Assembly (NCBI GenBank): GCA_902801245.1
Contig: CADCHW010000001.1
Span: forward strand, 9,626-73,625
DNA from: an uncultured Ruminococcus sp.
GTDB lineage: Bacteria; Bacillota; Clostridia; Oscillospirales; Acutalibacteraceae
Direction of reading: 5' to 3'
DNA length: 64,000 nucleotides
This document shows positions 44,923 through 54,702 of this stretch, piece after piece. The notes under the pieces were generated by a model. That model made no database searches and was not told where the DNA came from. It worked only from the letters and a program-made list of their open reading frames with translations. A program made the position numbers and the translations under genes. The stretch's first letter is position 1. Each line of letters opens with the position of its first letter.

Positions 44923-45858
44923 TTAATTTTCGGGGACAATTTTAACAACCGCCGTGCTGCTGTAAACAAGCGGATTGCTGTGAGAAAAGAAAATCGTACC
45001 GGTACACGGAGCAATAATTTTCTCCGTAATCTCACCCGTGTAAGGGTCAATTATTCTTGCAAGCAAATCGCCTGCCTCGGCTTGCTGACCCGATTGCAGA
45101 ACAGGTCGGTAAATACCCGAATGGGTGTTGCGGACATTTACCATATCCGTATTCCAAAGCAGCTTTGAGTGATAGCCTGCATTTGTGCTGACACTCTCGT
45201 CAATAACTCCGATACACTTCAAAAAGTGCAGAACACTCTTTATACCTTGCTTTGCACTTGCTTCATCGATATCGGCAGTAGTTGTTGTGTAAACGCTGTA
45301 AGCTTTTGTTTCCCAAAGCTGCCAGTTGTAGTTCAAAGTGGTAGTGTCATAAGGACGAACCTTTCTCCGCACAACATAGGGCATACCGAAAAGCTTCGCC
45401 TGTTCCACGTCCTCTTCGCCTGTTGACATCATTCTGATATGCGGAATAAATCTTCCCGGCATATAAAAGCTGGTGAACTGAATACCGTACTTGTAACTCT
45501 TGATATTCTCAAACAAACCTGCCGCAATTCTCTGAGTAGTTTCGCCCACATCATAGCCGGGGAACATTCTGTTAATGTCGGTGTTGTCGATAGGCCAGAA
45601 CCGCTTCTCAGTGTTTATGCTTCTCGGGTTGGCACAGGGGATAACGGTTATTTTCTTATCCTTGACAATAGCACCCTTTTGTTCCAGAATATTCAACTCT
45701 TTAACAAGCTGACTGCAAACGTAAGTCTGCTGTATCTCGTTTCCTCTCAGGCTTCCCAGAATGCAGACGGATTCTTCACCCGAACCGAACTCGAAAGCTC
45801 GTGCCCTCATATCATCTCTGTAAAGTGTTTTTAACTCGTAAATAATTTTTTCTCTCAT
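44923..45858 (-). CDS. AstE/AspA (succinylglutamate desuccinylase/aspartoacylase) family paralog with substituted metal ligands
   Basis: Same-length paralog of the upstream gene; GSLRGNEIQ in place of GTHGDELEG and IQFTS in place of IDIHAS. Confidence 0.7.
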   Translation of the reverse strand: MREKIIYELKTLYRDDMRARAFEFGSGEESVCILGSLRGNEIQQTYVCSQLVKELNILEQKGAIVKDKKITVIPCANPRSINTEKRFWPIDNTDINRMFPGYDVGETTQRIAAGLFENIKSYKYGIQFTSFYMPGRFIPHIRMMSTGEEDVEQAKLFGMPYVVRRKVRPYDTTTLNYNWQLWETKAYSVYTTTTADIDEASAKQGIKSVLHFLKCIGVIDESVSTNAGYHSKLLWNTDMVNVRNTHSGIYRPVLQSGQQAEAGDLLARIIDPYTGEITEKIIAPCTGTIFFSHSNPLVYSSTAVVKIVPEN

Positions 45859-46811
45859 ATTTTCAATTCTCTTCCCGGTAAAATTCTTCCGATTAACGAA
45901 CCCTCGTCAACAATGGGATATTCTCTGATTGTGAAGAGAATACCGTCACAGTCGGCAGTCACAGTCGTTAAGACCTTTCCCGACAGCGGGTCGATAATAT
46001 CGCCGATATGCTGACCCTCGGTGACGTTCGTCCAGTGCTTTGTGTGAGCAACGAACAAACCCGACTTCTCGGCATTCAAAAATGAAATGGGGTCTTCATC
46101 ATAAACCACAAGCGGCTTGCGGACGTTCGGAACTTCACCGCTCCACATTCCCAGCGATGACATAAGATTGAAAATTCCGTCCGTAAGCTGTTCGCAGTAG
46201 GATTTTGTTATCCTCATTCCAACACCCATTTCAACAACCAGAGTAGGCACTCCCACAGCGTTCATAGAGTGTGCCAGAGTAGATTCGAGTACAGTCGCCG
46301 ACGGGTGAACCCATATCAAATCAATATTTATTTTCTCGGCAATCGGAACAAGCTTTTTACCGAAAATAGTGTTGATTCTGACCTGAGGTATTTCCGTAAG
46401 AAAAATATTGCTTGCATGAATATCTATGCAAACGTCCGAACCCTCCAAATCCGTGACAATACCGTTTGCGATATGCTCAAGCATATAACCCTCGCTGTCA
46501 CCGGGGAACATTCTGTTCATATCCAAATCGAATGCGGGAATACCTCTTGTAATGGAATCAATGCCTATGGGATTGATAGCCGGATAGATGTCTATAATTC
46601 CGTTTAGGCATTCGGGGTGTTCATTAATTCTTTTCTGAACAAGATAGCATACATACTGACCCTCAAGCTCGTCACCGTGAGTTCCTGTTACAATGCTTAT
46701 TCTTTTTAAGTTATCGGTGTTCTCGGGGGCAATACGATTTTTCTTGATTCTTAAACTTTCATCACAGGGCAAATCAGCCTGCGTTACTGTTTGTATCATG
46801 TACTTCCTCAA
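45855..46811 (-). CDS. AstE/AspA-family zinc deacylase (M14-like)
   Basis: GTHGDELEG (HxxE) and DIHAS metal-site motifs; ATGA overlap with the downstream paralog. Confidence 0.8.
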   Translation of the reverse strand: MRKYMIQTVTQADLPCDESLRIKKNRIAPENTDNLKRISIVTGTHGDELEGQYVCYLVQKRINEHPECLNGIIDIYPAINPIGIDSITRGIPAFDLDMNRMFPGDSEGYMLEHIANGIVTDLEGSDVCIDIHASNIFLTEIPQVRINTIFGKKLVPIAEKINIDLIWVHPSATVLESTLAHSMNAVGVPTLVVEMGVGMRITKSYCEQLTDGIFNLMSSLGMWSGEVPNVRKPLVVYDEDPISFLNAEKSGLFVAHTKHWTNVTEGQHIGDIIDPLSGKVLTTVTADCDGILFTIREYPIVDEGSLIGRILPGRELKI

Positions 46812-47580
46812 CTTTCACATATATTTTCTGCGACTGAGTACCGCTGCCACGGAATATTCCTCTGTTGACGCTGCAATCGGCACTGTCACGTCCTGTGGAA
46901 ATAACGATGTGATTTTCGCTGACCTCCACATCATTAGTAGGGTCTAAGCCGTACCATTTGCCGTCCGAGTAAATCTCCGTCCAAGCGTGAGTTTCACCCT
47001 CACCCATAAGCAGACCCGTCACATATCGGCAGGGAATACCCAGACTTCGGCAAATCGAAAGCATTGACTGTGAGTAATCCTGACACACTCCTTTACCGAG
47101 TGCAAAGGATTCCTCCGCACTTGTAGCAATGCTTGTCGCTTTGGGAACGTATTCAAAGTGCTTGTAAACCTCGTGCATAATATAGCGTGATTTTTCAAGG
47201 TTGTCACCCTCGGGCAGACTGAGCTTCTTTCGGAACTCAGTCAATGATTCTCCCGATTTTGTGAGAGGTGTCTGCACTTTGAACAGTCCAAGCATAGACG
47301 GATTCACGTCCTCATCGTAAAATCCGCCGTTCATCTCGCACACACCCTCCACGGTTACACTGAACAGGGTGTGTTCTTCTGAAATACTGCCGTATCGGGT
47401 AAGGTTTCCGAAACCGTCCGTGCCGTCGGACAGCTTAACATTCGGGGTAATCTCGAAGTTAAGTTCGCTCACTGTCTGACGGCTTCCCGACTTCGGCAGG
47501 CATTTCAGCTTAAAATTGTGATTAGAAATAGGGCTTGTAAACTCGATTGTCATATTGTAGTGAAACTTTAGTTTCTTCAA
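46774..47580 (-). CDS. Transglutaminase-like cysteine protease-fold protein
   Basis: GKGVCQDYS...THAWTE...DPTND Cys-His-Asp triad; N-terminal Bact_transglu_N-like region. Confidence 0.85.
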   Translation of the reverse strand: MKKLKFHYNMTIEFTSPISNHNFKLKCLPKSGSRQTVSELNFEITPNVKLSDGTDGFGNLTRYGSISEEHTLFSVTVEGVCEMNGGFYDEDVNPSMLGLFKVQTPLTKSGESLTEFRKKLSLPEGDNLEKSRYIMHEVYKHFEYVPKATSIATSAEESFALGKGVCQDYSQSMLSICRSLGIPCRYVTGLLMGEGETHAWTEIYSDGKWYGLDPTNDVEVSENHIVISTGRDSADCSVNRGIFRGSGTQSQKIYVKVEEVHDTNSNAG

Positions 47581-47581
47581 A

Positions 47582-48250
47582 TTATATCTCCACCAAACTT
47601 TCTATATTTTCTACAATATTATAATAGTCTACTTTTTCACTTTCTGCAAGCATTTTTATTTCTTCCAGCTTAAATTTATTGTAAGGAAGTCCGCTGACGG
47701 GCAAACGGTAGTATAATTTTGAGATTTCCTTACTAAGCTGTGCTCTCGGAACTTTGAGTCTTGCGTACAAATCAATACGTTCAAGACGTTTTCCTACCTT
47801 GATTGCATCTCGTGTACGCTTGCTGTCGATTGAATCGTCCATATATCCCCAGAAAGCGAGAATGTGGTCGATAAGCTTCTGAATCTCCAGCATAGGAGAA
47901 TGACTTTTTTCCGCTTTCTGAATGTCATACATGGAAAGCTGAATGTAGCTCAGACCGTCCGAGCCTATTTCGTCACGCAGAATAATGGCATTGTCATAAG
48001 CTCTTGTCATATTGCTGATAATACTGTCGGGGTTGTCATTGTCAAACGCATAGCTTTTGATGAAGTTGTCCTTTGAACCGTAGATATCGGGAATATTCAT
48101 ATCAATGCAGAATTTCTGATAACTTTCCGCAATCTCGTCAATCATTGTGTCATAATGATTTGCATAAAGCTTTACAGTGGTGTACACTCTCTCGGTGTAT
48201 CTTCCAAGCCAGAAAAGGCTGTCGTTTTGTTCTATCGTGATAATACCCAT
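47582..48250 (-). CDS. Alpha-E domain protein
   Basis: N-terminal LFWLGRYTER motif characteristic of alpha-E domains; adjacent to the circularly permuted ATP-grasp gene. Confidence 0.8.
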   Translation of the reverse strand: MGIITIEQNDSLFWLGRYTERVYTTVKLYANHYDTMIDEIAESYQKFCIDMNIPDIYGSKDNFIKSYAFDNDNPDSIISNMTRAYDNAIILRDEIGSDGLSYIQLSMYDIQKAEKSHSPMLEIQKLIDHILAFWGYMDDSIDSKRTRDAIKVGKRLERIDLYARLKVPRAQLSKEISKLYYRLPVSGLPYNKFKLEEIKMLAESEKVDYYNIVENIESLVEI

Positions 48251-49572
48251 GTGTCTTTAAATCCTCCGCCCTGTGATGAATTAACTATGAATGAATCGGG
48301 GTTTCTTGAATATCTTGTCAAGCCCGAACGCCAAACAAGCGGTTCGTCCGCCATAAGAACAAATGCTCTCAAATCGGCTTTTCTCGGAACGATATTGCCG
48401 TCATCGAGAATTTCCAAATCCTTGAAATCGATAACTTCCTGACCGATAAATCTTCTCGGTTCGCTCTTAAGGAGATTAATGAAATCTTCCTTTTCGGTAC
48501 TCGAAAGCTTGCTTCCGAAAACAACACCGTAACCGCCTGCTTCCGCAACATCTTTCAGTACGAGATTGTCGAAATTGTCGAGAACATATTTCATATCCTC
48601 TTCGTAGAAAGGAAGATATGTTGGAGCATTGTTAAGTATAGGCTCTTCACCAAGATAATACTTAATCATTTTCGGTACAAAATAATAGATACCCTTGTCG
48701 TCTGCCACACCGTTTCCGGGAGCATTGATAATAGCAACGTTGCCCTTTTTGAACACATCGAAAATATGAGGAATACCGATAAGCGATTCGGAATTGAAAT
48801 TTATCGGGTCGAGATACTCGTCACTGATACGTCTGTAAACAGCACCCACACGCTCTTTCTTGCCGCTTGCGTCGAGATAGTAAAGCTTGTCGTCCTCAAC
48901 TGTCAACGCATTGTTTGTGACAAGGTGAGCACCTGTTCTTTCTGCAAGATAGGAATGCTCAAAGTAAGCGGCATTGTATCTGCCGGGTGTGAGGATAACC
49001 GTGTGACCGCCGACATTGACGTTATCCATTGTACGTCTGAGTAGGTCGGCATAGTTTCTGTTGTCCTCGATAGCAGTGTTTGCGAAAACATCGGGAGCGG
49101 AGCGGCGGCACAAATCTCTTGCTATCATAGGGTAGGAAGCACCCGAGGGAACTCTGAGATTATCCTCCAGTATGTACCAGCCTCCGTCCTTGGACTGAAC
49201 AAGGTCAATTCCCGAAATGTGGCTGTAAATGTCGTTTACAGGGAAAGCTCCCTCCATTTGCGGCATATAGCCGCTGCTTGCAAAGATGAAATCTTCCGGT
49301 ACAATACCGTCCTTAACGATACTTTTCTTGCTGTAGATATCCTTTAAAAATAAGTTCAAAGCGACAACTCTCTGCTTTAAACCTTTTTCCAGTACCGCAA
49401 ATTCGTCTGCTTTGATAATTCTGGGAATTGAGTCAAACGGAAAAAGCTGTTCTTTAAAGGTGTTATTCTTGTATATTCCAAACTTAACTCCGTATCTTGC
49501 GAGAAGCTCATTGACGGAGTCGGTATATTCAAGAAGCTTATACATGTCTTCCATAAAATCACAACCTAACAA
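48232..49572 (-). CDS. Circularly permuted type-2 ATP-grasp protein
   Basis: 446 aa, composition and order as in CP_ATPgrasp_2 proteins; first gene of the operon; likely true start is the ATG at 49554 (MEDMYKLL). Confidence 0.8.
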   Translation of the reverse strand: MLGCDFMEDMYKLLEYTDSVNELLARYGVKFGIYKNNTFKEQLFPFDSIPRIIKADEFAVLEKGLKQRVVALNLFLKDIYSKKSIVKDGIVPEDFIFASSGYMPQMEGAFPVNDIYSHISGIDLVQSKDGGWYILEDNLRVPSGASYPMIARDLCRRSAPDVFANTAIEDNRNYADLLRRTMDNVNVGGHTVILTPGRYNAAYFEHSYLAERTGAHLVTNNALTVEDDKLYYLDASGKKERVGAVYRRISDEYLDPINFNSESLIGIPHIFDVFKKGNVAIINAPGNGVADDKGIYYFVPKMIKYYLGEEPILNNAPTYLPFYEEDMKYVLDNFDNLVLKDVAEAGGYGVVFGSKLSSTEKEDFINLLKSEPRRFIGQEVIDFKDLEILDDGNIVPRKADLRAFVLMADEPLVWRSGLTRYSRNPDSFIVNSSQGGGFKDTWVLSR

Positions 49573-49631
49573 AAAAACTAAAAAGGCAAAGACATCAATC
49601 GAATTTTAATCGATTTGACATCTTTGCCTTT
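49571..49631 (-). terminator. Intrinsic terminator (or stand-alone small RNA) in the leader of the ATP-grasp operon
   Basis: On the minus strand a ~21-bp stem (AAAGGCAAAGAUGUCAAAUCGA / UCGAUUGAUGUCUUUGCCUUU, two G:U pairs, one bulge) followed by TTTTTAGTTTTTTT, ending just before the start codon. Confidence 0.7.
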
Positions 49632-49641
49632 TACTTATTTA

Positions 49642-49670
49642 ATTATATTACTAATTTTTTTCTTTGTCAA
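49642..49670 (-). promoter_or_regulatory. Consensus sigma-A promoter directly upstream of the leader hairpin
   Basis: Minus strand TTGACA, 17 nt spacer, TATAAT; predicted TSS only a few nt before the hairpin. Confidence 0.7.
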
Positions 49671-49741
49671 TAAAAATTCCGACGAAAATAATGTTAATTT
49701 TGACAAACTTCTTGATAATTTTTGCTATATCTTTCGGCGGA

Positions 49742-49988
49742 GCGAAGCTTGTTAAAGTTTGGTCAAGCTTTTCAAAGCTTGCGGGGTGCAGGGGCAGAGC
49801 CCCGCTCGCTGACGGAAAAAATTTGCAAAGAAAAGCAAACTACCCTCAGCGAAACTGAACAAACTATCAACAGCAAAATAAAAAAACAATCATAAAAACA
49901 ATATGTTCCGACATAAATAAAAGCAGGCAAGAGCGTATCGAATTGCCGATTTTAGAAAGATAACTTACGATTTGATTTCGACTGTACA
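49742..49988 (+). repeat. Family A repeat, copy A3
   Basis: GCGAAGCTTGTTAAAGTTTGGTCAAGC... core plus the CAGGCAAGAGCGTATCGAATTGCCG block; ends ...TCGACTGTACA. Confidence 0.85.
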
Positions 49989-49992
49989 TTTT

Positions 49993-50904
49993 TTAGTCTA
50001 TATTGCCAACCGTAAGTCTTTTCAAAATATCAATATACACCGAAGTAAGATATGACGGGTGTATTCCCGACGGCAGAATATACCCGATTTCCATATAATC
50101 ATCAACATCAAGCGTTCTTGCTATTATATTTGACCCATTCAGCTCCTCATTAATAACACCGCTGCAAATTGTGTAGCCGTTCAATCCAACCAGTAAATTA
50201 AAAAGCGTTGCACGGTCGCAAACTACAATTTCCTTGTCACAATCAGTCACACTGAGAATTTCCTCCGAAAAGTAGAAAGAATTGTGACTTCCCTGTTCAT
50301 AAGAAAGACGTGGATAAGGCTTTAAATCTTCAAGAGTTAAAATATCCTTTTCCGCAAGCGGACTGTTTTTCCCTATAAAAACGTGCGGCTCTGCAATAAA
50401 TAAAGTATGAAACACAAGTCCGTTATCTTTAATGACTTTTTTTATCACGGTTTCGTTAAATCGGTTGAGATACAGCACACCTATTTCACTTCTCAGATGT
50501 GCAACATCATTAATGATTTCATACGTCTGTGTTTCACGCATATGAAATTCGTATTTATCCCCGATATGCTCTTTGAGCAGCTCGACAAACGCTTCCACAA
50601 CAAATGAATAATGCTGTGACGAAACACAAAATCTTTGCTTTCCCGGAGCTTTACCGTTGTATCTTTCCTCAATCAGATTGGTTTGTTCTATAACCTGCCG
50701 TGCATATCCCAAAAATTCATCACCCTCGGCGGTGAGCTTAATGCCTTTGTTGGAGCGTGTAAAGATGTTTATGCGATATTCCTTTTCAAGCTCGTGAATT
50801 GCCGAGGTTAGGCTCGGCTGTGCGATATAAAGCGATTTTGCGGCTTCCGTGACAGAACCCGTTTCAGCGACCTTTATTACATATTGAAGCTGTTTCAGTG
50901 TCAT
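49993..50904 (-). CDS. LysR-family transcriptional regulator (divergent from metE)
   Basis: N-terminal HTH MTLKQLQYVIKVAETGSVTEAAKSLYIAQPSLTSAI; LysR substrate-binding C-domain. Confidence 0.88.
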   Translation of the reverse strand: MTLKQLQYVIKVAETGSVTEAAKSLYIAQPSLTSAIHELEKEYRINIFTRSNKGIKLTAEGDEFLGYARQVIEQTNLIEERYNGKAPGKQRFCVSSQHYSFVVEAFVELLKEHIGDKYEFHMRETQTYEIINDVAHLRSEIGVLYLNRFNETVIKKVIKDNGLVFHTLFIAEPHVFIGKNSPLAEKDILTLEDLKPYPRLSYEQGSHNSFYFSEEILSVTDCDKEIVVCDRATLFNLLVGLNGYTICSGVINEELNGSNIIARTLDVDDYMEIGYILPSGIHPSYLTSVYIDILKRLTVGNID

Positions 50905-50952
50905 TATCGTTACTCCTTAAAAATAGATTTCAAAATGATTATAGCACATATC

Positions 50953-50967
50953 ATAGGAAAAATCTAT
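50953..50967. promoter_or_regulatory. Candidate LysR T-N11-A box in the lysR/metE divergent region
   Basis: ATAGGAAAAATCTAT (ATAG-N7-CTAT) between the divergent genes. Confidence 0.35.
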
Positions 50968-51075
50968 GGTACACATAAATTTTTTATATTTTACATACTA
51001 AAAAGATAGGTTTATAATGTATTTCAGAAAGTTCTTTCAGGAGAACAAATAAAAAATAAAAAGGAGAAAACAGAG

Positions 51076-53349
51076 ATGAAAACATCGGTTATAGGTTTCC
51101 CGAGAGTGGGAGAGCTTCGTGAATTGAAGTTCGCAACGGAGAAGTATTGGCGAGGAGATATTTCCGAAAAGGAACTCCGTGATACAGCAAAGGATATCAG
51201 AAAGAAGAACTGGAGCATTCAGCAGGAGAAAGGCATTGACTTTATTTCGTCCAATGACTTTTCTTTCTATGACAATCTTCTCGACACTGCGTATGCGTTC
51301 AACATAGTTCCGAAAAGATACAAGGAACTCGGACTTTCCGATATCGATACATACTTTGCAATGGCAAGAGGTTATCAGGGTGAAAAGGGTGACGTTAAAG
51401 CCCTTGCTATGAAGAAGTGGTTTAACACAAACTACCATTATATGGTACCCGAATTTGACGACGGCACGGAAGTTAAGCTTGCAGGCACAAAGGCTTTGGA
51501 CGAATACAGTGAAGCGAAAGCTTTAGGCATTCAAACAAAAACCGTAATTGCAGGACCTTTTACTCTGCTTAAGCTTACAAGATTTACGGGCAGTACAAAA
51601 GCCGAGGATATCGCAGACCGTCTTGCGGAAAGCTATATCGAGCTTATTTTGAAGCTTTCGGAAGCGGGTGAAGAGTGGGTACAGCTTGACGAGCCTTATC
51701 TTGTCCGTGACTTAACGGAAGAAGATATCGCTTTGTTTGAAAAGCTTTACAAGAAAATTTTATCGGAGAAAAACGTGAAAATCCTCTTACAGACTTATTT
51801 CGGAGATGTGAGAGATATTTACAAAAAGCTTGTATCGCTTGATTTCGATGCAGTCGGACTGGACTTTATCGAGGGCATAAAGACAGCCGAACTCATTAAG
51901 GAGTACGGTTTCCCGAAAGATAAAATCCTTTTTGCAGGACTTCTTAACGGAAAGAACATTTGGAGAAACAACTATAAGAAAACACTTGAAACAATCTTCG
52001 ACCTAAAAGCACTCGGCATTAACACTGTTCTCTCGACATCGTGTTCACTTCTCCATGTGCCGTTTACACTCAGAAACGAGAGCAAACTTCCGCAGAAATA
52101 CACGGAGCATTTCGCATTTGCGGAGGAAAAGCTTTCGGAGCTTTTGGAATTGTCGTCGCTTGCCAATGCAGAGAATTTTGCGGAGATAGCAGGCGATTCA
52201 GAGTACACAGCAAACGAGAAATTGTTTAAGAACAGACCCGACGTTGTTATAGAGAAAGTACAGAATCGTGTAAGCAGTATCAAGGAAAGCGATTACACAA
52301 GACTTCCCGTTTTCGAGGAGAGAGAAAAAATTCAGAAAGAGGTTTTCAATCTCCCATTGTTCCCGACAACCACTATAGGTTCGTTCCCTCAGACGCAGGA
52401 CGTTAAACAAAACAGAAGTGCGTTCCGTAAGGGTGAAATCACTTTGGAACAGTACAAGGATTTTAACAAAAAGAAAATCCTGTCGTGTGTTCGTGAGCAG
52501 GAGGAAATCGGTCTTGACGTAATCGTACACGGAGAGTACGAACGAAACGATATGGTAGAGTACTTCGGCGAGCATTTGGAGGGTTATCTCTTCACGGAAA
52601 AAGCGTGGGTGCAGTCATACGGCACACGCTGTGTAAAGCCGCCGATTATCTGGGGCGACGTAAGCAGACGTGAAGCAATAACGTTAGAGTGGTCGGCATA
52701 TGCAAAAAGCTGTACCGATAAGCCTGTTAAGGGTATGCTCACGGGACCTGTTACAATTCTCAATTGGTCTTTCCCGAGAGAGGATATCTCCGTTAAAGAA
52801 AGTACACTTCAAATCGCACTTGCTATCCGTGACGAGGTGCTTGACCTTGAAGCCAACGGCATTAATATCATTCAGATTGACGAAGCGGCTCTCAGAGAAA
52901 AACTTCCGCTCAGAAAGTCCGATTGGTATTCGCAGTACCTTGATTGGGCAATTCCTGCATTCAGACTTGTGCACAGCGGTGTGAAACCCGAAACTCAGAT
53001 TCATACGCATATGTGTTACAGTGAGTTTACGGATATTATTCCGGCTATCGACAATATGGACGCAGATGTAATTACATTTGAAGCGTCACGTTCCGACCTG
53101 CTTATCCTCGATTCCTTAAAGGCGAATAACTTCAAAACGGAAGTAGGCCCCGGAGTTTACGATATACATTCCCCAAGAGTTCCGTCGGAAGAGGAGATTG
53201 TTTCCGCACTTGAAAAGATGCTCGGAAAAATCGATAAAGAGAAGCTTTGGGTAAACCCCGACTGCGGACTTAAAACAAGAGGGGAAACGGAAACTAAAGC
53301 GTCACTTGTAAATCTTGTTGCAGCGGCTAAGAAGCTGAGAAATAAATAA
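51076..53349 (+). CDS. metE: Cobalamin-independent methionine synthase
   Basis: 757 aa; [18 protein letters not shown] start; C-terminal zinc-site HMCYSEF and CGLKTR motifs. Confidence 0.95.
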
Positions 53350-53378
53350 AGTTGAAAAGAATACATATAAATCCTACA

Positions 53379-53528
53379 CCGGCAGGAAATACGTGAAGAC
53401 AGTCCTCTTTATATTTACTTTATGCACCCGACCGAAAATCAATTTTAACAACGAGGTATCGGTCGGGTACGTGAAGTGAAAATTTTAAACAAAAGCTGCT
53501 TTACATGTTTCCTGCGGACGTTGTCCGC
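53379..53528 (+). repeat. Family B palindromic repeat, full copy (B3)
   Basis: CCGGCAGGAAATACGTGAAGACAGTC...CACCCGACCGAAAA / TATCGGTCGGGTACGTGAAG...CATGTTTCCTGCGG, then hairpin GCGGACGTTGTCCGC. Confidence 0.8.
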
Positions 53529-53703
53529 CGAATAATTTCTAATTTTTTTCCTGTATACAGGGGTTGAAATATAAATAAAATGTGATAAAATAGTATTAGC
53601 CGATTTTTGATAGGCATTTTATTTTTTAGTCTATAACCTATTAAACATATATTTTTTATATAAATTGGATATATATGATGTTGTGCGAAAGGAGTGTTGC
53701 AGA

Positions 53704-54702
53704 ATGTATAATGTATGTCTATTTTTGGAAAGCAGCACTTTATTGGCAAAGCTTACATCTTTGCATATATGGGGAGAAGAAACACAATTTGAAATTCAGG
53801 CTGTTTGCAGTGACTTCAATTCTCTTTTAAAGCAGGTCAAAAACAAAAGTTTTGATTTGCTTATAGCCGAAAACAGTTTGGTTGAATTTGATGATTACTT
53901 AAAATTTCTCGATATAAAAAACAATAAACAATGCCGTCATATAGTACTTTGCAGCGAAAACGGCGATTTTCAATCCGCAAGAAAAGGAATTCTTATAGGA
54001 GCAGAGGATTATTTCATACTTCCGTTTGACGAAATTCTGATACTTTCATTGTTTGATAAAATAAAGAATAAGCACATCAACAGTGACGAGAGGATAAAAA
54101 GCTCGATAGATAAATTCGCCGATAAGCTGTCGGTTCTGTTTATAAATCGGTCTAATGATATATACAGTTACCTTGAATATATTAACGGCTATAAAGTAGC
54201 CGCCGAAACAATCGATAAAGCACTGGGCATTATTTTTCAAAAAAATGATTGGCTGGATTTGTACTTTAACGAGTTTGATTTTAAATCCTCAAACGTTTCG
54301 GAGTTTTCGGAGCAGAAAAGCAGATTTATAGGACTTTACGAATCATATATCAATTTGTACCCTCACCACAACGAAACTCTTGATGATGTTATAAAATATA
54401 TTCTTTATAATCCCGAAAGCGATTTAAGACAAAAAGCTCTTTCCGAGGAGCTGCATATAAATAAATCTTATCTCAGTACAATTTTTATTGCTCAGACAAA
54501 TATAAGATTTGTTGATTATATTTCAAATATAAAGCTTCTGCGAGCGGCTTGGCTGTTAAAGAATACCGAAATGAAGGTCGGTGAGATAGCACAGAAAATA
54601 GACTATAAAGATGTTGCCTATTTTTCAAAGCAGTTCAAAAAGAGCTTCAGCTGTTCTCCGTCGGAGTACAGATTGCCGGACAATTATCATTTTGAAATTT
54701 AA
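53704..54702 (+). CDS. AraC-family regulator with a degenerate (pseudo-)receiver domain
   Basis: Start at MYNV after AAAGGAG; C-terminal AraC HTH (GEIAQKIDYKDVAYFSKQFKK); N-terminal CheY-like fold with key residues replaced. Confidence 0.75.
   Translation: MYNVCLFLESSTLLAKLTSLHIWGEETQFEIQAVCSDFNSLLKQVKNKSFDLLIAENSLVEFDDYLKFLDIKNNKQCRHIVLCSENGDFQSARKGILIGAEDYFILPFDEILILSLFDKIKNKHINSDERIKSSIDKFADKLSVLFINRSNDIYSYLEYINGYKVAAETIDKALGIIFQKNDWLDLYFNEFDFKSSNVSEFSEQKSRFIGLYESYINLYPHHNETLDDVIKYILYNPESDLRQKALSEELHINKSYLSTIFIAQTNIRFVDYISNIKLLRAAWLLKNTEMKVGEIAQKIDYKDVAYFSKQFKKSFSCSPSEYRLPDNYHFEI

Follow-up and report, generated by a model that had tools for sequence, protein, structure and literature searches.

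A terminator directly behind the promoter of a Ruminococcus ATP-grasp operon is probably a single-hairpin, ANTAR-type attenuator that ties the operon to nitrogen assimilation

What does an intrinsic terminator do when it follows a consensus promoter by a few nucleotides (nt) and lies just ahead of the first start codon of an operon? This question is raised by the minus strand of a 64,000-nt stretch of DNA from an uncultured Ruminococcus sp. (assembly GCA_902801245.1, contig CADCHW010000001.1, positions 9,626 to 73,625; hereafter the window), where such a unit forms the leader of a five-gene operon that begins with a circularly permuted ATP-grasp gene. An earlier note on this DNA had offered two answers side by side, a stand-alone small RNA of ~60 nt and an attenuator dependent on an antiterminator acting in trans. 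We find that the terminator is a selected RNA structure, that it competes with a small conserved hairpin, and that the same type of leader stands before glutamine synthetase genes. On these grounds we put the probability at roughly 0.75 that the leader is a protein-dependent transcription attenuator of the ANTAR (NitR) type, which would place the ATP-grasp operon in the nitrogen regulon. It is not a canonical dual-hairpin ANTAR target; most likely it is a single-hairpin, 5′-terminal variant with the same mode of action.

The anatomy of the leader (Table 1) agrees closely with what the earlier note had described. Its perfect promoter is the sole 12/12 match among 22 promoter-like sites scanned in positions 45000-54000, and the long hairpin of about 21 base pairs (bp) that the note had placed at 49631-49582 is one pair longer and includes the two G:U pairs it had counted (U13.G and G14.U). 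As the note had also claimed, the hairpin folds better as minus-strand RNA, reaching -30 kcal/mol in a 101-nt context (z = -5.2; none of 200 shuffled sequences was as stable) vs only -22.3 kcal/mol for plus-strand RNA, where the G:U pairs turn into A-C mismatches. The 71-nt leader folded alone gives -27.5 kcal/mol. Since only 9 nt separate the end of the -10 hexamer from the hairpin, the latter begins ~3-5 nt from the predicted 5′ end, and it runs into the U-tract UUUUUAGUUUUUUU, whose first four U pair with the A-tract 49632-49629. By sequence criteria, this is an intrinsic terminator, a G+C-containing stem-loop followed by a U-tract on the transcribed strand. Both candidate starts named in the note, TTG at 49572 and ATG at 49554, follow the U-rich tail, and the ATG coincides with the aligned start of orthologues. 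We also agree with its judgement that a riboswitch aptamer would not fit into so short a leader, and Rfam 15 gave no match overlapping the leader at E <= 10 in positions 48500-51200; on 18 orthologous loci, the sole Rfam match at the gathering score was a tRNA fragment. A first, simple terminator scan (loops of 3-8 nt, at most 20 pairs, no bulges) did not return the window hairpin, solely because of these limits on loop, pairs and bulges. The promoter-hairpin unit (positions 49560-49700) is single-copy in the genome, which rules out a repeat or mobile element of the miniature inverted-repeat (MITE-like) kind. A leader peptide that can be read in the 5′ arm of the window (ATG-TCA-AAT-CGA-TTA-AAA-TTC-GAT-TGA) was rejected, as the family consensus has no ATG.

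The earlier note had asked for conservation upstream of orthologous operons, and this is what we observe. ATP-grasp orthologues were gathered from relatives and from 80 further genomes, mostly metagenome-assembled genomes (MAGs) of Lachnospiraceae and Oscillospirales plus two Treponema MAGs, for a total of 85 loci. Eight loci from the same genus or order have upstream sequence that can be read, and all of them show a terminator-like hairpin and U-tract before the gene; in the seven with enough contig, a consensus-like promoter lies a few nt upstream of the hairpin. The hairpin sequences themselves differ among the eight. Over the whole set, 70 of the 85 loci carry, at most 160 nt from the start codon, a hairpin of -13 kcal/mol or below that runs into a U-rich tail, and in 54 of those 70 a promoter matching at least 9/12 positions has its -10 hexamer ending -3 to 45 nt before the hairpin. 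Where the hairpin is missing, the gene mostly lies directly behind another gene in a longer operon. The order of promoter and terminator is kept where the genes upstream of the orthologous operons are unrelated, and on this ground we rejected the hairpin as a terminator of the LysR-type gene that lies upstream in the window.

Sequence change within the hairpin shows on which strand and at which level it acts. In an alignment of 62 orthologous leaders (A1), 97.4% of cells in the terminator stem are paired and 98 cells are double changes, a number that none of 500 shuffles reached, and slid controls pair in only 38-66% of cells. The hairpin is therefore under selection as a structure of the sense-strand RNA. 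In its 5′ arm, A11, G16 and U18 are invariant and C9, G13 and C15 at least 90% conserved, beyond what pairing needs, and opposite U17 and U18 the 3′ arm has G in some leaders and A in others, giving U.G or U-A pairs; together, these features indicate that the sense-strand RNA is also read for its sequence. A long palindrome over the early transcribed region could instead be an operator, an inverted repeat in DNA that binds a dimeric repressor downstream of the promoter, but we find this hardly credible: the spacing of the conserved half-sites differs by more than 15 bp among loci, the G:U pairs and the U.G/U-A alternation belong to a strand-specific structure, the upper stem covaries freely as RNA does, and a U-tract is always next to it.

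Across Lachnospiraceae, Oscillospirales and the Treponema MAGs (L093, L095), ATP-grasp proteins share 77-84% identity, and the leader accompanies the gene, which points to the operon and its putative switch having moved together by horizontal transfer. Five further loci (L046, L050, L055, L067 and L090) lie on contigs labelled Prevotella, Alistipes or Muribaculum; these Bacteroidota labels may be binning errors.

The sequence read in the 5′ arm belongs to a second structure. A 4-bp mini-hairpin with the hexaloop AAAGGC and the family consensus RRC-AAAGGC-GYU forms when columns 6-9 (RRRC) of A1, which immediately precede the terminator, pair with columns 16-19 (GYUY). Each stem pair is formed in 92-100% of the 62 leaders: 9-16 in 60 (C-G), 8-17 in 61 (AU 40, GU 14, GC 7), 7-18 in 62 (AU 48, GU 14) and 6-19 in 57 (GC 34, AU 15, GU 7, UG 1). 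The mini-hairpin has 32 double-change cells vs 15.8 +/- 2.9 in shuffles, and overall pairing is 87% vs 34-54% when the partner columns are slid. The hexaloop is A (50) or G (12) at position 1, A in all 62 at position 2 and G in 59 at position 4. Its loop and 3′ strand (columns 10-19) lie inside the 5′ arm of the terminator (columns 10-22), and because these columns are common to both, the two structures are mutually exclusive. One base even covaries with both of its alternative partners, as every leader with C at column 17 has G at both columns 8 and 42 (7/7). This is the classical antiterminator/terminator layout. Orthologues from the same genus keep it with different sequences (GGC-GAAGAC-GUC, GAGC-AAUGGC-GCUU, AAAGC-AACGGC-GUUUU and UGGC-AAGGGC-GCCG).

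The window's copy of the mini-hairpin has its stem strands at 49628-49626 and 49619-49617, and its hexaloop (49625-49620) starts with A and has G as its fourth base. The nascent RNA can form it before any other structure, and it is weak alone, at -0.1 to -2.3 kcal/mol. When it is forced, the leader goes from -27.5 to -6.8 kcal/mol and no stem adjoins the U-tract. With a terminator so much more stable than the mini-hairpin, termination would be the default and read-through would need something that holds the mini-hairpin. The layout is also specific to these leaders: requiring a hexaloop [AG]ANGNN on a stem of at least 3 bp with a C-G closing pair at the base of the 5′ arm, and using the same terminator finder for both sets, we found it in 85% of the terminator-like hairpins ahead of ATP-grasp orthologues (58/68) vs 0.5% of those across this genome (3/605). 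Several Lachnospiraceae and Saccharofermentans leaders carry tandem mini-hairpin-plus-terminator units, ~50-190 nt upstream of the ATP-grasp start (L027-L029, L031, L033, L035, L037, L040, L041, L059 and L060; two units each, three in L031), the first of which often has a GGAC-AAAGGA-GUUC hairpin. Such tandem switches would make the response sharper.

Which other genes lie behind this leader type? A strict pattern scan of the window's own genome gave eight matches, three of which are promoter-proximal leaders, including that of the window. The second (C6:4142-4195; GAGC-AAGGGU-GUUC) precedes a gene for a 396-amino-acid glutamine synthetase (glnA), which is followed by one for a 196-amino-acid ANTAR-domain protein, and the third (C87:3066-3099; CAGC-AACGGU-GCUG) precedes a gene for a 697-amino-acid type III glutamine synthetase (GSIII). 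A relaxed scan gave 162 matches that were mostly spurious and were not used. We also built a covariance model (R1) from Lachnospiraceae leaders, which in five Lachnospiraceae genomes found ten matches of at least 37 bits: four before ATP-grasp operons, two before GSIII genes, two before glutamate-synthase-like genes, one before an Lrp/AsnC gene, and one (L115) at the 3′ end of a gene, which lacks the C-G closing pair as expected of an ordinary terminator. The matches before GSIII, glutamate-synthase-like and Lrp/AsnC genes are promoter-proximal. In one genome (G044; L112, L056), the ATP-grasp leader heads a long operon that starts with a polar-amino-acid ATP-binding cassette (ABC) transporter and runs from the leader through an ABC ATPase, an amino-acid-binding lipoprotein, permeases, a 197-amino-acid kinase-like protein and a 422-amino-acid membrane/HAD-like protein to ATP-grasp and Alpha-E, a layout that links the ATP-grasp system to polar amino acid uptake. 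The unit is always sense-oriented and directly before a gene. Its presence on glutamine synthetase and glutamate-synthase-like genes marks a nitrogen-assimilation regulon, of which, on this distribution, the ATP-grasp operon appears to be a regular member.

Some observations on these loci stand apart. The Gln-synt_C match of the 396-amino-acid protein behind the C6 leader (C6:2243-4195) ends at profile position 317 of 344, and this may be a shortened or sensor-type glutamine synthetase and not a standard type I enzyme. About 385 nt upstream of an isocitrate dehydrogenase gene, C42:23501-23533 has a GGGC-AAAGAU-GUCU motif and a CUUUGCC 3′ arm as in the window, with a poor inner stem and a poor U-tract, and may be the switch in a decayed form; relatives have the unit immediately upstream of an isocitrate dehydrogenase fragment (L025) or immediately downstream of an isocitrate dehydrogenase gene (L021, L022, L032). 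Lastly, another 12/12 promoter is followed after ~30 nt by a strong terminator (C34:7487-7520; CTC-AAAGCA-GGG...), beyond which lie a further promoter and a birA-like gene. The locus could encode a small RNA of ~65 nt, or it could be an attenuator of a different kind; its match to the mini-hairpin looks fortuitous.

These results also bear on two readings that dispense with a switch. An unregulated element, either a leaky insulating terminator or a stem-loop that stabilises the 5′ end of the mRNA with no conditional antitermination, would fit a hairpin this close to the predicted 5′ end, which is where 5′ stabilisers of Firmicutes are placed, and the upstream LysR-type gene has no obvious terminator of its own. 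It leaves unexplained, however, a covarying mini-hairpin that competes with the terminator, its enrichment over ordinary terminators, the tandem units, and the recurrence of the unit on glnA, GSIII and glutamate-synthase-like leaders; we regard it as quite unlikely. We think it very unlikely that the unit is a gene for a trans-acting small RNA of ~55-65 nt, with separate expression signals for the operon. A consensus promoter with an immediate strong terminator is indeed the anatomy of such a gene, but the 17 nt between the U-tract and the ATG hold no second promoter, orthologous hairpins differ outside the hexaloop region and thus offer no conserved trans-acting seed, the conserved loop is buried in the stem of the terminated RNA, and the unit's constant position and orientation before a gene would not be expected. 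The conserved order, the mini-hairpin and the nitrogen-gene leaders favour the attenuator over the small RNA that the earlier note had set beside it, and the short RNA is most likely a by-product of the off state.

What, then, might hold the mini-hairpin? Published work describes the ANTAR element as a small hairpin whose hexaloop needs A1 and G4 for recognition, with one copy (P2) overlapping the 5′-proximal part of a terminator; eut sites have in common the 13-mer AGCAANGRRGCUY, which overlaps the 5′ arm of the terminator, and predicted ANTAR regulons consist mostly of nitrogen genes (Ramesh et al. 2012, PMC3369931; Stewart and van Tilbeurgh 2012, PMC3369936). The targets of EutV (Enterococcus faecalis eutP, eutG, eutS and eutA), NasR (Klebsiella nasF) and AmiR (Pseudomonas amiE) resemble the leader described here in their short-stemmed A1/G4 hexaloop hairpin, in the position of its loop and 3′ strand within the 5′-proximal part of the terminator, where stabilisation by the protein would block termination, and in their association with nitrogen genes. 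The window hairpin and its family have the short stem, A1 and G4, and they overlap the 5′-proximal terminator strand as P2 does, to the exclusion of the terminator. The eut 13-mer resembles the consensus RRC-AAAGGC-GYU, and 41 of the 62 leaders match it at 10 or more of 13 positions; the last loop position differs, being C in the family (U in the window) and R in the eut consensus.

Candidate readers are present as well. ANTAR proteins (PF03861 above cut-off; ~180-215 amino acids) are encoded in every motif-bearing genome tested (18/18, the two Treponema MAGs among them) and in none of 14 controls, and in the window's genome one of them, the 196-amino-acid protein behind glnA, is itself linked to the regulon. 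This protein scores 20.4 bits against Response_reg, below the 30.2-bit cut-off, and reads VLIVSA... and ...IVIINAPLDDD where acidic residues are usual in a receiver. The degenerate domain suggests a pseudo-receiver, as in AmiR; EutV, in contrast, is phosphorylated. The gene for a second ANTAR-domain protein (C8:35575-36156; 193 amino acids) comes right after aroA-, aroC- and pheA-like genes with the same orientation, suggesting a separate ANTAR circuit tied to aromatic amino acid biosynthesis. We assign the leader to the ANTAR type because of the fit of its loop signature and 13-mer, the ANTAR genes in every motif-bearing genome tested, and the ANTAR gene behind the glnA leader.

Several points weigh against this assignment. 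The first concerns P1, the upstream hairpin of a dual-hairpin target, deletion of which lowered eutP induction (PMC3369931); a 2025 review (PMC12591593) describes only dual-hairpin ANTAR targets. Here, 67 of 74 units have no upstream hexaloop hairpin within 45 nt, and in most of the remaining seven the upstream hairpin lies in a separate tandem unit with its own terminator, while the others look fortuitous. Neither the apex of the window's long hairpin nor the terminator loop contains a P1 hairpin. Because the -10 hexamer is so close to the mini-hairpin (3-26 nt in most loci, 13 nt in the window), there is no room for one: what EutV, NasR and AmiR meet as P1 plus P2 is here a single hairpin ~0-19 nt from the 5′ end. 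Second, the window mini-hairpin has 3 bp only and a loop ending in U, and is among the weakest of its family. Third, R1 does not detect the diverged copy in the window, and on the window's own genome returned just three weak matches (23-32 bits) to ordinary 3′-end terminators. Fourth, ANTAR genes may simply be common in these lineages, which would make their perfect co-occurrence weak evidence.

The missing P1 breaks the dual-hairpin rule, and it opens the way to the same terminator/antiterminator switch with another reader, such as a different RNA-binding protein, a small RNA on the 5′ arm, or an effect of nucleoside triphosphates or growth condition on folding; the conserved, single-stranded-looking stretch CAAAGGCGUU could bind such a factor. 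We consider this unlikely in view of how closely the loop signature and 13-mer resemble ANTAR sites, of the ANTAR genes in all motif-bearing genomes tested and of the one in an operon headed by a copy of the unit, and of published ANTAR regulons, which are mostly nitrogen genes. A known case of an aptamer-free switch with the terminator almost at the 5′ end of the transcript, as predicted here, is the Bacillus subtilis pyrG attenuator, in which CTP-sensitive reiterative transcription from a GGGC start adds a poly-G extension that pairs with the terminator. Here, in contrast to pyrG, a hexaloop hairpin competes with the terminator and the start regions lack conservation; we rejected reiterative transcription on the latter ground.

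The closest counterpart to the ANTAR reading is NitR, the product of an ANTAR-type antiterminator gene downstream of glnA in Clostridium saccharobutylicum/acetobutylicum P262 (Fierro-Monti, Reid and Woods 1992, as cited in PMC4676874). The glnA-nitR order of these solventogenic clostridia is the order of glnA and ANTAR gene behind the C6 leader, an arrangement we also liken to the ANTAR/glutamine synthetase-glutamate synthase (GS-GOGAT) cluster Clo1313_2030-2036 of C. thermocellum. The role expected in these organisms is nitrogen-responsive antitermination of ammonium-assimilation genes. In the literature we found no published definition of an RNA target for NitR. The evidence for NitR function comes mostly from genetics of the 1990s.

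We therefore propose a model in which the binding of an ANTAR protein, termination and read-through, the identity of the regulator, and the signal and direction of the response are all inferred from sequence. Transcription would start ~7 nt past the consensus -10 hexamer, and the first 20 nt of RNA would fold into the tiny hairpin GGC-AAAGAU-GUC with the A1/G4 hexaloop signature recognised by ANTAR domains. Without help, the 22-bp terminator would form and RNA polymerase would halt at the U-tract, 17 nt ahead of the ATG, leaving the operon off by default and releasing a by-product RNA of ~55-65 nt. An active regulator, most likely the pseudo-receiver ANTAR protein co-transcribed with glnA from behind the same type of leader, would clamp the mini-hairpin, presumably under nitrogen limitation. 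Clamping would take 12 nt from the base of the terminator 5′ arm and leave a weak, A/U-rich apical stem far from the U-tract; with the terminator lost, polymerase would continue into the operon. A broader proposition, which seems to us evenly poised between true and false, is that many gut and rumen Clostridia, together with recipients of the operon such as the Treponema MAGs, run ammonium assimilation through single-hexaloop, 5′-end ANTAR attenuators with a non-phosphorylatable reader of the NitR type, and that the ATP-grasp/Alpha-E/transglutaminase/deacylase operon is a core member of this nitrogen-limitation response; its enzymes would then form a system that ligates and hydrolyses amide bonds for nitrogen scavenging or storage.

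If the leader does work in this way, the consequences reach beyond one operon. The circularly permuted ATP-grasp/Alpha-E/transglutaminase system is widespread and has so far had no known physiological role; an attenuator common to glnA, GSIII and glutamate-synthase-like genes predicts that its operon is induced by nitrogen limitation. ANTAR recognition has been defined by two hairpins, and a large natural set of single-hairpin, 5′-terminal sites would alter searches for ANTAR targets, because dual-hairpin models and Rfam overlook them. How an ANTAR dimer would read a lone loop is a further question that such sites pose. Annotators, finally, should not take every clostridial promoter with an immediate terminator for a small RNA gene or a mistake, as a full switch can fit within ~70 nt.

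Table 1. Features of the leader and of the operon behind it (positions in the window)
Feature	Positions	Strand	Description
Sigma-70-type promoter	49642..49670	-	TTGACA 49670-49665, 17-nt spacer, TATAAT 49647-49642
Predicted transcription start	~49636-49634	-	
Intrinsic-terminator hairpin	49581..49632	-	22 bp, one bulged A, 7-nt loop
Putative antiterminator mini-hairpin (P2-like)	49617..49628	-	GGC-AAAGAU-GUC, within terminator 5′ arm
U-tract	49571..49584	-	UUUUUAGUUUUUUU; read from sequence
Weak Shine-Dalgarno-like site and start codon of the ATP-grasp gene	49552..49567	-	AGG 49567-49565, ATG 49554-49552; read from sequence
Five-gene operon	44923..49554	-	Pfam matches; genes overlap or abut
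Circularly permuted ATP-grasp	48232-49554	-	Pfam
Alpha-E	47582-48250	-	Pfam
Transglutaminase-like	46774-47580	-	Pfam
Two AstE/AspA-type deacylase-like genes	45855-46811 and 44923-45858	-	Pfam

The genes of the operon (Table 1) include the conserved triad of the circularly permuted ATP-grasp, Alpha-E and transglutaminase-like systems, formerly DUF404/407 and DUF403 (Iyer et al. 2009, as cited in PMC3597751). The operon in the window differs from such systems in that two AstE/AspA-type deacylase-like genes take the place of an Anbu peptidase and in that the triad sits behind a probable nitrogen-type attenuator. The only prior hint of a nitrogen role that we found is a correlation of the triad domains with urea-metabolism domains in marine metagenomes (PMC3597751), and our literature search found no report placing an ATP-grasp/Alpha-E/transglutaminase operon in a NitR regulon. 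The antiterminator mini-hairpin and the link to nitrogen genes go beyond the earlier note.

Upstream of the operon lie the LysR-type gene and a divergent metE. The stretch between the LysR-type gene and the promoter (49727-49988; core 49752-49963) is one copy of a repeat of ~210-250 bp. The 2.6-Mb genome gave 312 first-look candidates for this repeat, and the copies scored, at least 40, have 79-92% identity. This copy ends at ~49742-49727, at least 57 nt upstream of the -35 hexamer, and therefore lies outside the switch. Contigs of relatives break in or near the leader (L019, for example, ends 61 nt upstream of the ATG), and such repeats are the probable cause.

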